In this document: piece by piece, positions 9,330 to 64,000 of the stretch
How the letters are laid out: each line of letters begins with the position of its first letter
How positions within the stretch are numbered: position 1 is the first letter of the stretch
Assembly: GCA_038087875.1 (NCBI GenBank)
Contig: CM075988.1
Span: 25,360,001 to 25,424,000 of the forward strand
Source: Malacoraja senta
Lineage: Eukaryota
Reading direction: 5' to 3'
DNA: 64,000 nt
The notes under the pieces: generated by a model
What the model was told of the DNA's origin: nothing
Seen by the model: the letters and a program-made list of their open reading frames with translations, nothing else
Database searches by the model: none
Translations under genes and position numbers: made by a program

Positions 9330-9970
9330 CTTCCATAACCTAGGGCAGTGTAGAAGGATTTTGGCACACTGGCCTTCATCAGTCAGGGAATTGAGTGTAA
9401 ACGTTGAGACATGACGCACAAGACATTGGTCAGACCGCACTTGGAGAAATGTGTTTAGTTTTTGTCACCCTGCTTATAGGAAAGATGCCACCGAGCTGGA
9501 CAGTGTGCAGAGATGATTTACCAGTATATTGCCCAAACTAGAGGGCCTGAGCTACAAGGAGAGATTGGGCAGGCAAAGACTTTCTTCCTTGGAGCACACA
9601 AGGCGAAAGGGTGTTCTTAAGGAGGTGTACACATTTTTGAGGAGAATTGACAGAGTGATTGCAGAGTCTTTTTCCCAGAGGAGGGGAATCAAGAAACTGG
9701 CAAGATAGGTTTAAGGTGAGGGGGGGAAAGATTGAACAGGAACCTGAGGCACAACCTTTTCATTCAGGGAGTGCCAGAGGAAGTAGTCAAAGCAGGTACA
9801 ATATCAACATTTAAAAGACATTTGGTGAAGTATATGGATATGAATGGTTTAGAGAGATATGGGCCAGGCAGCGACAAAAGGGACTAGCTTGGATGAGGTA
9901 TCTTGGTTGGCATAGACAACTTGGGCTGATGGGCCCATTTCCATGCCGTATCACTCTATGGCTAATTCTA
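9330..9970 (+). mobile_element. Decayed CR1-type LINE 3' region
   Basis: Degenerate copy of the RPHLE..VQFW / VQRRFTR segment seen intact at 54846. Confidence 0.8.
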
Positions 9971-20602: not shown

Positions 20603-20995
20603 ACATAGAAACATAGAAACATAGAAACTAGGTGCAGGAGTAGGCCATTCGGCCCTTCGAGCCTGCACCGCCATTCAATATGATCATGGCTGATCATCCA
20701 ACTCAGTATCCCGTACCTGCCTTCTCTCCATACCCTCTGATCCCTTTAGCCACAAGGGCCACATCTAGCTCCCTCTTAAATATAGCCAATGAACTGGCCT
20801 CGACTACCCTCTGTGGCAGAGAGTTCCAGAGATTCACCACTCTCTGTGTGAAAAAAGTTCTTCTCATCTCGGTTTTAAAGGATTTCCCCCTTATCCTTAA
20901 GCTGTGACCCCTTGTCCTGGACTTCCCCAACATCGGGAGCAATCTTCCTGCATCTAGCCTGTCCAACCCCTTAAGAATTTTGTAAGTTTCTATAA
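20603..20995 (-). mobile_element. Young CR1 (HER1-like) LINE 3' fragment
   Basis: LIETYKILKGLDRLD...FFTQRVVNLWNSLP; (tttctatg)n tail; near-identical to 55123-55514. Confidence 0.92.
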
Positions 20996-21258
20996 GTGTA
21001 ATCATCGTTTCAGATCTGTGACTGAATTTCAATTTTCCACTCATGTGAATATTGCCTGATGTCCTTGACTAAAAACCCTGCAACCATGTCCCTAAACAAG
21101 AGCCATCTCTTGGGTTTGGGTTGGGCTTCCTTAATGTAACCCAACAAGAGAACAAAGTTTTAAAGAAGGAACTGCAGATGCTGGAAAATCGAAGGTACAC
21201 AAAAATGCTGGAGAAACTCAGCGGGTGCAGCAGCATCTATGGAGCGAAGGAAATAGGC

Positions 21259-28517: not shown

Positions 28518-28925
28518 TTCTTTGGAGCGCAGAAGGTTAAGGGGGGACTTGATAGAGGTCTTTAAAATGATGAGAGGGATAGACAGAGTTGACGTGGATA
28601 AGCTTTTTACATTGAGAGTAGGGAAGATTCAAACAAGAGGACATGATTTGAGAATTAAGGGACAGAAGTTTAGGGGTAACATGAGGGGGAACCTCTTTAC
28701 TCAGAGAGTGGTAGCTGTGTGGAATGAGCTTCCAGTGGAAGTGGTGGAGTCAGGTTCGATTTTATCATTTAAAATTAATTGGGTAGGTATATGGACGGGA
28801 AAGGAATGGAGGGTTATGGTCTGAGTGCAGGTAGATGGGACTAGGTGAGTGTAAGTGTTCAGCATGGACTAGAAGGGCCGAGATGGCCTGTTTCCGTGCT
28901 GTAATTGTTATATGGTTATATGGTG
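28518..28925 (+). mobile_element. CR1 3' fragment, (tatggtta)n-tail subfamily (another piece at about 40165-40375)
   Basis: LERRRLRGDLIEVFKMMRG...TQRVVAVWNELP. Confidence 0.9.
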
Positions 28926-29007
28926 TTATGGTCTTTTATTAGGAAGTGCAACAGTGATGCTACCAAGACGCTCCTCACAGTAACCAAGACACTCCTCTGC
29001 TACTCAC

Positions 29008-29216
29008 CCATGGAAGACCCACGTATCGCATTCGTCTGCCTTGGCAATGTAGTTTTCTGGGAGCAGGCCAGAGCTGCCCGTGGCGAGCGAGGTGCCGTAG
29101 ATCCAGCCTTCGCTGGTGCTGCTCTGCTCGATGAGCGACATGAATATAAAGTCTCCTTGCACCAGTTCCAGCTCGTCATCGTTCTGTGGTGTGTATGGGT
29201 ACATCACTCGCAGAGT
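29008..29216 (-). CDS. UBASH3B: UBASH3B exon 6 (209 nt), SH3 domain: TLRVMYPYTPQNDDELELVQGD...GLLPENYIAKADECDTWVFH
   Basis: ORF 29004..29276 translation; ccag acceptor, gtgagt donor. Confidence 0.97.
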
Positions 29217-29363
29217 CTGGCAATAGGAAAACCCAGCAGAGAACCATCTTAAAATCATAGTTACAACACAAGCCAATCACAGAAAGGAAGACATTGGGAA
29301 AACATGAATTTAAATGATTGAGTTGTTGATATTTATCCAGGGCACACCAACTCCACTCAGTAG

Positions 29364-30252
29364 ACAAAAGTGCTGGAGAAACTCAGCGGGTGCAACACAC
29401 TGAGTAGGCAGGAGTATAGAGGTGTATTAAAAAATTAGGGCTTTCGATGAAGGGGACAGACTTTTATTCCGAACAAATTTTAACTCAATTGTTTGCCTGT
29501 TGTGGAAAAGTTTTTGTTAGTTGGGTTTGTTATCATCACCAGTATTGAGGAACAGTGAAAACCTTTGCTTGCGCGCTATCCAGTCAAAAAGACTGCATGG
29601 ATACAATCCAGACGTCCACATTGCACAGGTAAAGACACACATTTAGTGCAAGATATAACATCAAAGTCCCATAAAGTTTGCCCAGAGGTCTCCAATGAGG
29701 TAGTGGTGGCGTGTAGATTATTTTGATGCAATGGACATTCTCGGTGAAAACGATTCGTCTTGTACGTCAATGACACGAGCCGCACACTGAGTAGACAGGA
29801 GTATAGAGGTGTATTAAAAAATTAGGGCTTTCGATGAAGGGGACAGTCTTTTACTCAGAGTAGGGGAATCGAGAAGCTGAGGGCGTCGGTTTAAGGTGAG
29901 ATAGGACACATTCAACATAACATGAGGGTCTTTTTGTTTCACACAGGGGGTGGTGGGTGTATGGAACAAACTGCCAGAGGAGCAGGTGATGGCAGATACT
30001 ATAACAATTGGACAAAAGTGCTGGAGAAACTCAGCGGGTGTAGCAGCATCTATGGAGCGAAGGAAACAGGCAACGTTTCGGGCCGAAACCCCTGAAGGAA
30101 ATAGGCTACGTTTCGGGCCGAAACCCGGAAGGGTTTCGGGCCGAAACTTGCCTATTTCCTTCGCTCCATAGATGCTGCTGCACCCGCTGAGTTTCTCCAG
30201 CACTTTTGTCTACCTTCGATTTTCCAGCATCTGCAGTTCCTTCTTAAACACT
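29364..30252 (+). mobile_element. Composite PLE insertion carrying transduced intron-1 sequence; 12-bp TSD tccactcagtag
   Basis: TSD at 29352-29363 and 30253-30264; body is the reverse complement of 62703-63506. Confidence 0.85.
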
Positions 30253-31313
30253 TCCACTCAGTAGTTCCCTCCACAGAAGGCGATATACCAAATGCATAAT
30301 CAGTCTGAACCCAAACGTCACCCATTCCTTCTCTCCAGAGATGCCGCCCGTCCCGCTGAGTTCCTCCAGCATTTTGTGTTTATCTGAAATGTTACAATTA
30401 TCTCAGAAGATCTTCGGTGTAAACCAGCATCTGTAGTTCCTTCCCGCACACGTTGAGTCAATGTTGCCTGTCGTTCATAGGGGGAACAGCCCCATATTTG
30501 GAGTCCCAGAGGTTCATAACTTCCACCCTGACGGGTTGCAGCGCTCACATCATGCCCACACATCTCACCACCCTCACCATCTCACATCCACCACCAAGTC
30601 CAGACTGGCCTGGGCCAAGGAGCAGAATACACGTCACTGTTGACCCCTCATTTCACACCAGCCTTAATAGGAATGGAATCACCAACTTGGACAACAAAGA
30701 TAAATGACGTGTACGAAGGAACTGCAGATGCTGGTCTACACTGAAGTAGACACAGAAAGCTGGAGTCACTCAGCGGGTCAGGGAAGCATCTCTGGAGAAA
30801 AGGAATAGGTGACGTTTTAGGTCGGAACCCTTCTTCAGACTGAGCAGACTGAAAGGAGTGGGGGGGGGTGGAGGGGGGTCTGAAGGCTGAAAAGAACAAG
30901 CTTCCCGAGGCCATCTGTTGCCAGCCCTATTTTGTTCTGGCCTTCATCTGAAGAAGGGTTACAATGAACAAGTTTAACTTTTTTTTTATTTCACGTTCCA
31001 TCTGCCAGCTGGTGAATTGGTTCTGAGCCATCGAGTTGGGAGGAAAGGTAGGATTTAATGAATCTCAGTGAACTAAAAATAAGCAAAAGTCCCACCACAA
31101 TCACAAAGCAGATTTATTTCAGCAGAAAGAATGCAACAAGTGGAGGAGTGTTATACAAATACTAATCGACCCACTCACTAAACAGTGGCTTGAGACACGA
31201 TCGCTGAGAACGTGGACGATATAATTCTGCTCAGCTGTAGAATGTGACTGTAGCAGTGATGTTCACCGACCATGGAAAGGACTTCACAAGATCAGTCTAG
31301 AGGCAGGGCCACG

Positions 31314-43600: not shown

Positions 43601-43695
43601 AATAATGTACACAGAGGTGATGGACACCATGCCAGCGCTAACTGCAAGAGAAAATAGTTAAGTTGCAGGTTTGTAGACATTAAGCTGATACCAAC

Positions 43696-43749
43696 CAATC
43701 ACATGCGGCCTGGACACTCTTCCCTCCAGTAGATGCTAGCGCCTTTAGT
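43696..43749 (-). CDS. UBASH3B: UBASH3B coding exon 2 (54 nt), UBA domain: LKALASTGGKSVQAACDW
   Basis: Matches recalled human STS-1 QKALASTGGRSVQAACDW; acceptor ttccag, donor gttggt; phase fits exon 3. Confidence 0.93.
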
Positions 43750-45526: not shown

Positions 45527-46287
45527 AAGTCAAGTCAAGTCAAGTGAGTTTATTGTCATGTGTCCCTGGTAGGACAATGAAATTCTTGCTTTGCTTGAGC
45601 ACAACAGAACATAGTAGGCATTTACTACAAGGCATTCTATAAATATATACACAATGGTCAATATACTGATAAAGTGCAAATAACAGTATTGGCTAGTAAA
45701 GTTCAGTGTTATGTCCGAGCCAGGTTTAATAGCCTGATGGCTGTGGGGAAGTAGCTGTTCCTGAACCTGGTCGTTGCAGTCTTCAGGCTCCTGTACTTTC
45801 TACCTGAAGGTAGTAGGGAGATGAGTGTGTGGCCAGGATGGTGTGGGTCCTTGATGATGCTGCCAGCCTTTTTGAGGCAGCGACTGTGGTAGATCCCCTC
45901 GATGGAAGGGAGGTCAGAGCCGATGATGGACTGGGCAGTGTTTACTACTTTTTGTAGTCTTTTCCTCTCCAGGGCACTCAAGTTGCCGAACCAAGCCACG
46001 ATGCAACCGGTCAGCATGCTCTCTACTGTGCACCTGTAGAAGTTAGAGAGAGTCCTCCTTGACAAAACCGACTCTCCGTAATCTTCTCAGGAAGTAGAGG
46101 CGCTGATGTGCTTTCTTAATAATGGCATCATTGTTCTCGGACCAGGAAAGATCTTCAGAGATGTGCACGCCCAGGAATTTGAAGCTCTTGACCCTTTCAA
46201 CCATCGACCCGTTGATATAAACGGGACTGTGGGTCCCCATCCTACTCCTTCCAAAGTCCACAATCAGTTCCTTGGTTTTGCTGGTGA
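45527..46287 (-). mobile_element. Rex1/Babar-type LINE 3' fragment
   Basis: KTKELIVDF...FKFLGVHISEDLSW...KKAHQRLYFLRRL...NFYRCTVESML; (cttga)n tail; one frameshift. Confidence 0.88.
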
Positions 46288-54840: not shown

Positions 54841-55514
54841 AGGCAGTGAAGAAAGCGAATGGTATGTTAGCTTTCATAGCAAAAGGATTTGAGTATAGGA
54901 GCAGGGAGGTTCTACTGCAGTTGTACAGGGTCTTGGTGAGACCACACCTGGAGTATTGCGTACAGTTTTGGTCTCCAAATCTGAGGAAGGACATTATTGC
55001 CATAGAGGGAGTGCAGAGAAGGTTCACCAGACTGATTCCTGGGATGGCAGGACTGTCTTATGAAGAAAGACTGGATAGACTTGGTTTATACTCTCTAGAA
55101 TTTAGGAGATTGAGAGGGGATCTTATAGAAACTTACAAAATTCTTAAGGGGTTGGACAGGCTAGATGCAGGAAGATTGCTCCCGATGTTGGGGAAGTCCA
55201 GGACAAGGGGTCACAGCTTAAGGATAAGAGGGAAATCCTTTAAAACCGAGATGAGAAGAACTTTTTTCACACAGAGAGTGGTGAATCTCTGGAACTCTCT
55301 GCCACAGAGGGTAGTCGAGGCCAGTTCATTGGCTATATTTAAGAGGGAGTTAGATGTGGCCCTTGTGGCTAAAGGGATCAGAGGGTATGGAGAGAAGGCA
55401 GGTACGGGATTCTGAGTTGGATGATCAGCCATGATCATATTGAATGGCGGTGCAGGCTCGAAGGGCCGAATGGCCTACTCCTGCACCTAATTTCTATGTT
55501 TCTATGTTTCTATG
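54841..55514 (+). mobile_element. Young CR1 (HER1-like) LINE 3' fragment, RT C-terminus in open frame
   Basis: ORF 54846..55415 LVRPHLEYCVQFWSP...VQRRFTRLIPG; (tttctatg)n tail. Confidence 0.95.
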
Positions 55515-56411: not shown

Positions 56412-57205
56412 TATGGTGCCAGCACAACAACCTGGCCCTCAACACCAGCAAAACCAAGGAACTGATTGTGGACTTTGGAAGGAGTAGGATGGGGACCCAC
56501 AGTCCCGTTTATATCAATGGGTTGATGGTTGAAAGGGTCAAGAGCTTCAAATTCCTGGGCGTGCACATCTCTGAAGATCTTTCCTGGTCCGAGAACAATG
56601 ATGCCATTATTAAGAAAGCACATCAGCGCCTCTACTTCCTGAGAAGATTACGGAGAGTCGGTTTGTCAAGGAGGACTCTCTCTAACTTCTACAGGTGCAC
56701 AGTAGAGAGCATGCTGACCGGTTGCATCGTGGCTTGGTTCGGCAACTTGAGTGCCCTGGAGAGGAAAAGACTACAAAAAGTAGTAAACACTGCCCAGTCC
56801 ATCATCGGCTCTGACCTCCCTTCCATCGAGGGGATCTACCACAGTCGCTGCCTCAAAAAGGCTGGCAGCATCATCAAGGACCCACACCATCCTAGCCACA
56901 CACTCATCTCCCTACTACCTTCAGGTAGAAGGTACAGGAGCCTGAAGACTGCAACGACCAGGTTCAGGAACAGCTACTTCCCCACAGCCATCAGGCTATT
57001 AAACCTGGCTCAGACATAACACTGAACTTTACTAGCCAATACTGTTATTTGCACTTTATCAGTATATTGACCATTGTGTATATATTTATAGAATGCCTTG
57101 TAGTAAATGCCTACTATGTTCTGTTGTGCTCAAGCAAAGCAAGAATTTCATTGTCCTACCAGGGACACATGACAATAAACTCACTTGACACTTGACTTGA
57201 CTTTG
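56412..57205 (+). mobile_element. Rex1/Babar-type LINE 3' fragment in open frame
   Basis: ORF 56396..57019; near-identical inverted copy of 45527-46287. Confidence 0.9.
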
Positions 57206-62616: not shown

Positions 62617-63150
62617 CCATCTACACTAGTCCCACCTGCCCGTATTTGGCACAAATCTCTCTAAACCTTTCCTATCCAGGTACCTGTTTAATTGTTATAG
62701 TATTTAAGAAGGAACTGCAGATGCTGGAAAATCGAAGGTAGACAAAAGTGCTGGAGAAACTCAGCGGGTGCAGCAGCATCTATGGAGCGAAGGAAATAGG
62801 CAACGTTTCGGCCCGAAACCCTTCCGGGTTTCGGCCCGAAACGTTGCCTATTTCCTTCCGGGTTTCGGCCCGAAACGTTGCCTATTTCCTTCAGGGTTTC
62901 GGCCCGAAACGTTGCCTGTTTCCTTCGCTCCATAGATGCTGCTCCACCCGCTGAGTTTCTCCAGCACTTTTGTCCAATTGTTATAGTATCTGCCTCACCT
63001 GCTCCTCTGGCAGTTTGTTCCATACACCCACCACCCTCTGTGTGAAACAAAAAGACCCTCATTTTTATATTAAATGTTTCCTATCTCACCTTAAACCGAT
63101 GCTCTCAGCTTCTCGATTCCCCTACTCTGAGTAAAAGACTGTCCCCTTCA
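62617..63150 (-). mobile_element. Old CR1 fragment interrupted by a palindromic PLE repeat (62704-62975; TSD aattgttatagtat)
   Basis: TSD at about 62690-62703 and 62976-62989; CR1 sequence continues across the insertion. Confidence 0.85.
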
Positions 63151-64000
63151 TCGAAAGCCCTAATTTTTTAATACACCTCTATACTCCTGTCTGCTCAGTG
63201 TGCGGCTCGTGTCATTGACGTACAAGACGAATCGGTTTCACCGAGAATGTCCATTGCATCAAAATAATCTCCACGCCACCACTACCTCATTGGAGACCTC
63301 TGGTCAAACTTTATGGGACTTTGATGTTATATCTTGCACTAAATGTGTGTCTTTACCTGTGCAATGTGGACGTCTGGATTGTATCCATGCAGTCTTTTTG
63401 ACTGGATAGCACGCAAGCAAAGGTTTTCACTGTTCCTCAATACTGGTGATGATAACAAACCCAACTAACAAAAACTTTTCCACAACAGGCAAACAATTTG
63501 TTCGGATGTTTTAAAATTACGTCACCAGGCATCCCAACCAACACTTTTTCATAGAAACATAGAAACATAGAAAATAGGTGCAGGAGGAGGCCATTCGGCC
63601 CTTCGAGCCAGCACCGCCATTCATTGTGATCATGGCTGATCGTCCCCAATCAATAACCCGTGCCTATAGAAGTTCACACAGAGTCTGTGGAATTCTCTTC
63701 CTCAGAGGACAGTGGAGGCCGGTTCTCTGGATACTTTCAAGAGAGAGTTAGATGGAGCTCTTACAGATTGCGGAGTCAGGGGATATGGGGAGAAGGCAGG
63801 AACGGGGTACTGATTATGGATGATCAGCCATGATCACATTGAATGGCGGCGCTGGCTCGAAGGGCCGAATGGCCTACTCCTGCACCTATTGTCTATTGTC
63901 TCCCGTCATTGCAAGAAGATAAAAGGTTTGGATAATGTTGGACAAAGCCAGATGAGGCCAGCTAGCAGAACTGCAGAACCTGTCCTGGTTTGTGGAGGTG

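Follow-up and report, generated by a model that had tools for sequence, protein, structure and literature searches.

The window (the whole 64,000-nucleotide stretch of Malacoraja senta DNA analyzed here) covers part of a UBASH3B-like gene on the minus strand, all coding exons of which were mapped with elasmobranch UBASH3B-like proteins. Exon 6 (SH3) occupies positions 29010-29219 (minus strand), approximately 130 bp from the insertion that is the subject of this study. Exon 2 lies at 43686-43748 (minus strand); intron 1 spans the distance between it and a point 61.6 kb beyond the window end, and exon 1 is located 61.7 kb past the window. The gene order at C12:25.02-25.96 Mb is let-7 (plus strand), UBASH3B-like (minus strand), an IL-1/18-like gene, an adaptor-mu-domain gene, PHLDB1, a NACHT-LRR gene, a PDZ gene, a U-box/Ufd2 gene, and ATP synthase g, as derived from Pfam and homology matches with a Pfam scan that took in 150 of 599 candidate frames.

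Self-comparison of the window indicated that the segment 29468-30252 is an inverted duplicate, the reverse complement of 62699-63506. The core alignment pairs 29487-30252 with the reverse complement of 62699-63498 and reaches 29468/63506 across an 11-bp indel. Copy and source differ by 16 substitutions in ~770 bp (about 2%), the 11-bp indel, a 33-bp indel corresponding to one tandem unit, and three 1-bp indels. The copy is ~780 bases long and is separated from its source by ~33-34 kb. Exon mapping places the source (62699-63506, minus strand) in intron 1 of UBASH3B and the copy in intron 5, and the copied strand, which bears the tail of a Penelope repeat, is the UBASH3B sense strand. The near-identity, the two introns and the strand are all as a preliminary description had claimed. 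That description also mentioned two 69-aa ORFs that translate alike; these are GTG frames at 29576-29785 (minus) and 63200-63409 (plus) with identical translations, and the three substitutions between them are all synonymous in frame, probably by coincidence. The copy is intronic and shows no sign of a function. The 11 bp present in the copy are absent from the source, which lost them later.

The composite is built as follows, with all features on the plus strand. A left target site duplication (TSD) at 29350-29363, with 12 exact bases at 29352-29363 and 14 if one slip is allowed, is followed by a 31-bp stub of an inverted Penelope arm (29364-29394), which begins at the inner end of the tail. 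Next comes a re-copied piece of ~70 bp at 29396-29466, equal to 29783-29853 in direct orientation; the alignment of 29396-29472 with 29783-29859 has 94.8% identity, and the piece has three copies genome-wide (here, at 29783, and in the source). The captured flank from intron 1 (29468-29844) is low copy, and the stretch that follows (29845-30009), captured from the LINE around the source repeat, ends in the left 14-bp TSD of the source. The copy of the palindromic Penelope repeat itself (30010-30250) comprises an inverted arm, 33-bp units, a forward arm and the tail, and is followed by the right TSD (30250-30264, exact 12-mer at 30253-30264). The joins at 29394-29396 and 29465-29469 exhibit microhomology or filler (1 filler base or 2-3 base microhomologies around the re-copied piece), and poly(A) is absent. 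An exact 30-bp direct repeat (29363-29392 = 30011-30040) also lies inside the composite. Thus the short inverted repeat and the re-copied segment were both verified, the ends of the copy are defined by the Penelope repeat, and the proposal that a template jump made the 70-bp re-copy was borne out. The ~550 bp of flank said to be non-Penelope DNA were indeed captured, but part of this supposedly repeat-free cargo (~29564-29704) is an old diffuse repeat. The 12-mer TCCACTCAGTAG occurs in the window at positions 29352 and 30253 only. The direct repeat reads as the remains of a 14-mer, with 29350-29363 matching 30250-30264 but for an extra T.

The source repeat is a solo Penelope repeat forming a near-perfect hairpin (62702-62975, minus strand; predicted DNA fold of -122 kcal/mol, a figure without a shuffle control). 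It sits within a LINE, presumably a CR1, and has its own 14-bp TSD (62688-62701 and 62976-62989). Both flanks of the repeat align in order to another LINE-like copy at 9665-9929. Since the source repeat has its own TSD in a LINE that continues on both sides, as had been proposed, the direction of copying is from intron 1 to intron 5. At base 30249, the copy has C, the canonical tail letter, whereas the source has T, which there belongs to its TSD; the last bases of the copy are therefore probably not source-derived. The two letters after the tail were considered as proof of templating by the source; this argument was dropped, as a 14-bp TSD with one slip fits them. The forward arm of the copy shows 0 differences from the source in 95 bp. 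Among 36 subfamily copies, the forward arms differ by a mean of 4.4, and only 5 of 630 pairs are at 0. If an older arm was present at the landing site, it was almost wholly rewritten from the source.

A 291-bp cargo probe gave two full-length matches (98-100%) in the 1.94-Gb genome, with the next-best match at 79% over half its length (best 40 of 500 candidates scored), in contrast to an ordinary multi-copy family. The left copy junction is unique in the genome and the copied segment has a single donor in the genome (best 40 candidates scored in each search).

The repeat is the terminal repeat of a young Penelope-type family. The endonuclease fragment in the window scores above the Pfam cut-off and is matched at 90-100% identity by at least 150 scored sequences, in which frames of up to 743 codons are open. 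At another locus (L202), a 611-codon frame starts in the same arm and tail; its matches to RVT_1 (E 5e-5) and GIY-YIG (E 7e-4) are weak, both being under the Pfam cut-off. A script was run over 1,664,000 contiguous bases (1.664 Mb) of the same contig, and it found 360 tail motifs, of which 65 are built as TSD (10-18 bp), inverted arm, tail and TSD, at least one of these calls being false. Short solo palindromes account for 58 of the 65, their arms having a median length of 73 bp; the modal TSD length is 14 (16/65). Penelope repeats make up 4.9% of the surveyed region vs 37% for all repeats. In its outer build, the finding does not differ from other insertions of this family. Core boxes resembling those of a minimal hammerhead ribozyme are discernible by eye in the repeat; a search with Rfam gave no match at the gathering score in 300 kb containing such repeats. 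The build of the solo repeats (TSD, inverted arm, tail) matches the two internal start sites that bound the tail and are used by a Penelope reverse transcriptase (RT) in vitro (PMC11167929). It is also identical to that of canonical EN+ Penelope insertions, with an inverted arm and a 30-40 bp tail (PMC8557442; PMC11167929). The tail likewise stands at the start of the frame for RT and GIY-YIG at L202. Unlike such canonical insertions (PMC8557442), the insert described here lacks element coding sequence, and its interior is host flank.

The variant ggaaacaggc is shared by both copies, but it is rare rather than private to them as had been thought: of 88 motif copies within 1.664 Mb, 4 have it. 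Two neighboring solo repeats at C12:25,429,100 and 25,431,357, 5-7 kb beyond the window end, share the state of the source, with 0 differences in the forward arm and the rare ggaaacaggc variant. Judged by these letters, local homogenization among nearby repeats is possible. Separately, two solo Penelope palindromes (C12:25,712,389-25,713,161 and 25,335,740-25,336,671) have a center replaced by a LINE 3' end with no TSD visible by eye; such replaced centers may mark these repeats as break-prone.

The anatomy of the composite would suit host pre-mRNA having been retrocopied afresh, by target priming, into an empty site, where a new TSD and a new inverted arm were made; this is how the preliminary description interpreted it. 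Normal insertions of the family, 65 of which were called in 1.664 Mb, have the same succession of TSD, arm starting at the inner tail end, tail and TSD, and a precedent with a verified empty site is available from Adineta (PMC3846280). This interpretation predicts an empty orthologous site with a single TSD in relatives. Short-read contigs from four runs (organisms A-D, A being the closest to this genome) were aligned on 28900-30700.

In the run of organism A, which has other alleles in the right flank, a contig bridges the copy-specific join (29430-29846), and the structure is therefore not an assembly error. Source alleles in the bridging contig point to a merging of branches. An assembly artefact or an ordinary multi-copy non-autonomous family can practically be dismissed, given this contig, the 16 differing sites and several indels between the copies, and the presence of only two copies genome-wide (best 40 candidates scored) both here and in a second case presented below.

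In all three of organisms B, C and D, a contig of the left flank crosses the direct repeat and carries on in the Penelope arm up to its own end, with 14 (to 29377), 22 (to 29385) and 6 (to 29369) arm letters, respectively. The left contig of organism A itself ends at the same base as that of organism C. An empty site would give unrelated unique sequence after the left TSD; the relatives give the arm, and thus there is no empty site at the left junction, to which these short-read contigs refer (the right junction is hidden among repeat rows). With so few mismatches listed, the alignments were not forced across an empty site. No copy-specific junction was found in the contigs of B, C and D, which represent the whole run of C and 86-90% of the two others, with the caveat that contig simplification can drop or merge branches. 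In the whole run of organism C, there is no cover at 29449-29491, and one contig spans 29492-29982 unbroken. A piece from organism B aligns gapless from 29472, has 55 unaligned letters beyond that point, and contains the 11 bases missing from the source. A single cargo copy was seen in B and C, with no sign of a second one in any of the three relatives; stretches of the cargo lacking cover in organism D were left aside as evidence. The divergence of the cargo from this genome is 17/269 in organism B and 35/490 in organism C (6-7%), approximately three times the distance between copy and source.

A TSD arises when the adjoining element arrives. As the TSD was made with the adjoining element and the arm is found in relatives without the cargo, the Penelope repeat and the TSD are both older than the cargo. 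The direct repeat framing the copy is accordingly not new, contrary to the earlier claim. A fresh insertion of host pre-mRNA by a Penelope RT is very improbable in view of the arm in 3/3 relatives, a terminal letter unlike that of the source, and the antisense strand of the second case. The preliminary description had itself named outgroups lacking an empty site as an outcome that would speak against it.

A true Penelope retrocopy may instead have formed before the split of these organisms and collapsed in the relatives via the 30-bp direct repeat, while conversion kept copy and source alike in this genome. The exact repeat 29363-29392 = 30011-30040 offers a substrate for such a collapse, and patchy divergence in both cases suggests that conversion does occur. 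However, this history requires three extra events, and copy and source differ by 1.3% across the low-copy cargo, at scattered sites, well under the 6-7% that separate it from the relatives. The unrooted tree of organisms A-D gives no root from which losses could be counted. We give this history little credence.

The 1.664-Mb survey contained 28 low-copy pairs, and ends were inspected for ~17 pairs or pieces. Two pairs end at a tail, namely the finding and one more case at C12:25,663,238-25,664,678. An alignment end would fall within 4 bases of a tail by chance at ~0.001 per end, and the link to the repeat is therefore not accidental. The second case is a 1.44-kb inverted copy (96.7%) of C12:25,689,373-25,690,820, with a 14-bp TSD, two copies genome-wide (best 40 candidates scored) and a donor 27.6 kb off. 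Its source spans two separate solo repeats, providing repeat homology at both ends, and lies in an intron of PHLDB1 (plus strand); the tail-bearing strand is minus, namely antisense. The first coding exon of PHLDB1 was sought and not found, and a let-7 search was of no help in orienting this case. Its left arm differs from the arm of the source at 7 of the first 60 bases. The divergence is patchy, with two 250-bp tracts of 0 differences (P ~0.004 each under a uniform rate) beside a middle part of ~4.7%. The search for TSD-flanked duplications at the Penelope terminus in 1.664 Mb thus yielded one further example, and the expectation that the source strand would be sense to the host gene failed in it.

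Two of the 65 TSD-and-arm elements hold local cargo, both inverted relative to the source. The seven long elements of this set consist of these two, three solo repeats with later LINE inserts, one with a false TSD and one with two tails; for one of the three with LINE inserts, no donor with the same join was found among 40 scored. The survey is blind to events that lack an arm, whose cargo consists entirely of repeats, or whose TSDs have decayed. As the 1.6 Mb yielded a single event that had not been selected beforehand, any rate derived from it could be off by two orders of magnitude.

Other local duplications were observed in the same region. A 376-bp inverted local copy (C12:25,097,614-25,097,989 and 25,102,187-25,102,560), 4.9 kb from its donor, reads as an ordinary repair-type duplication with a ~52-bp direct repeat frame and no Penelope end. 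Three shorter direct local copies at ~25,209,600, 25,643,800 and 26,146,200 (C12) have no Penelope end. A ~2.4 kb tandem duplication (98-99%) lies at C12:25,594,382-25,604,195, its copies later split by separate element insertions. At C12:26,169,600-26,185,900, short direct and inverted copies (91-99%) are tangled around a LINE in a complex rearrangement, with no Penelope ends seen. Within the window, the pair 45527-46286 / 56443-57203 (99%) was rejected as a similar event since it belongs to a young dispersed LINE family, and the pair 20604-20996 / 55122-55514 (99%) looks like a young LINE 3' end.

We somewhat prefer, at slightly better than even chances, the explanation that the finding is an inverted local duplication inside an older Penelope terminal repeat, formed by DNA break repair from a nearby look-alike repeat. 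Because the TSD brackets arm and tail, a complete solo repeat would formerly have stood at the landing site. A break in this palindrome, presumably caused by its hairpin structure or by the endonuclease of the element, would allow the tail-side end to pair with the matching repeat 33 kb off in inverted orientation. Synthesis on a DNA template would then proceed through the donor repeat and ~550 bases beyond the homology into the flank, one slip would produce the short re-primed 70-bp piece, and rejoining to the left stub would take place via 1-3 base microhomology joins, with loss of the old interior; the order of the synthesis steps is also conjectural. Both donors are inverted, and direct partners would tend to delete. 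Repair duplications are known to land in existing transposable elements with microhomology, filler and chimeric pieces (PMC2671141), and homology-initiated tracts terminate by microhomology and template switching (PMC5104497). Break repair is further favored by the short local copies without any Penelope end in the survey, by the TSD, which reads as a decayed 14-mer of modal length and fits an older frame, and by the second case, which is antisense with repeat homology at both ends. Against it, the identity of the forward arm to the source over 95 bp needs full conversion or tail-only pairing, the strand copied here is that of the pre-mRNA, and the donors at 28-34 kb exceed the typical range of under 5 kb (PMC2671141). 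Two events are known, the first of them with outgroup data.

The chief rival, with two steps as well but an RNA template, is that Penelope re-entered its own repeat. The endonuclease would nick the older repeat near the tail, and its RT or another RT would copy a repeat-bearing nascent RNA, replacing the interior. The sense orientation of the copied strand, the wholly source-like forward arm, and the existence of a young family whose ORFs are nearly complete (open over up to 743 codons) agree with this scenario, as does the location of both captures at Penelope repeats in spite of their small share (4.9% vs 37%) of the region. In vitro, the Anolis enzyme starts inside RNA at both tail ends, disregards additional RNA on the 3' side, and cleaves the junction of its own repeat (PMC11167929). 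The sense strand, however, has a prior of 50%, as the tails within UBASH3B are 20 sense and 21 antisense, and the antisense second case would need either an antisense RNA driven by the repeat or priming at the opposite end. The backward jump of ~320 bases to an internal position would also better suit a duplex DNA template. Re-entry is considered unlikely on balance. The proposed rule that host pre-mRNA serves as the template fits one of the two cases, the only other one being antisense to PHLDB1, while an RNA template at an old repeat is still compatible with the data.

The finding works like the repair-mediated duplications of Pace et al. (2009, PMC2671141), although it is not filed in their proximal class because the donor is more than 5 kb away. 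As in that account, a copy from one donor lies inside a pre-existing transposable element on the same chromosome, the joins contain filler or microhomology, the pieces are chimeric without poly(A), and the event is lineage-specific. The differences are that the donors here are 34 kb and 27.6 kb away, compared with under 5 kb in the proximal class, that the copies are longer (0.9 and 1.4 kb) and primed by ~100 bp of repeat homology, and that they are bracketed by the TSD of the host element and so mimic a retrocopy. In long-tract gene conversion (Hartlerode et al., 2016, PMC5104497), one end likewise depends on homology and the other shows template switching together with microhomology or added nucleotides; short repeats also act as substrates in rearrangements mediated by transposable elements (PMC9675761). 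These two studies concern reporter or human Alu/L1 data, whereas the present event is a germline one at palindromic Penelope repeats.

In the trans-mobilization by Penelope described for Adineta vaga, host DNA is framed by direct and inverted pLTRs and a TSD, and introns are retained; non-coding captures between solo pLTRs are mentioned as well (Arkhipova et al., 2013, PMC3846280). The same frame of pLTRs and TSD is present in both of our cases. The NRPS case in Adineta has an allelic empty site with a single TSD, while here the relatives already carry the repeat and the donor is identified and local. Capture of host DNA by Penelope in Adineta (PMC3846280) and duplication by repair in existing elements of vertebrates (PMC2671141) are thus already known. 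What the literature searched did not contain is the combination seen here, in which solo Penelope palindromes lie tens of kb apart, DNA is captured between them, and the result mimics a retrocopy. The pattern was unreported in cartilaginous fishes in this literature (mostly freely readable texts), and PMC9977147, PMC4209133 and bioRxiv 10.64898/2026.07.22.740005 contained no closer precedent.

A frame of Penelope repeats and a TSD around host DNA does not by itself prove retrocopying. Such a frame can predate its content, and such cases therefore need an outgroup test. Capture of this kind is possibly a common route to local, inverted, kilobase-scale duplication in a repeat-rich fish genome. 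We tentatively suggest that old solo Penelope palindromes might be recurrent capture sites, which an active endonuclease would re-cut and which RT or host repair would fill with sequence from the nearest matching repeat at a distance of tens of kb, nascent intronic RNA included. A few percent of solo repeats, corresponding to hundreds to thousands per genome, might then hold local duplications that resemble retrocopies.
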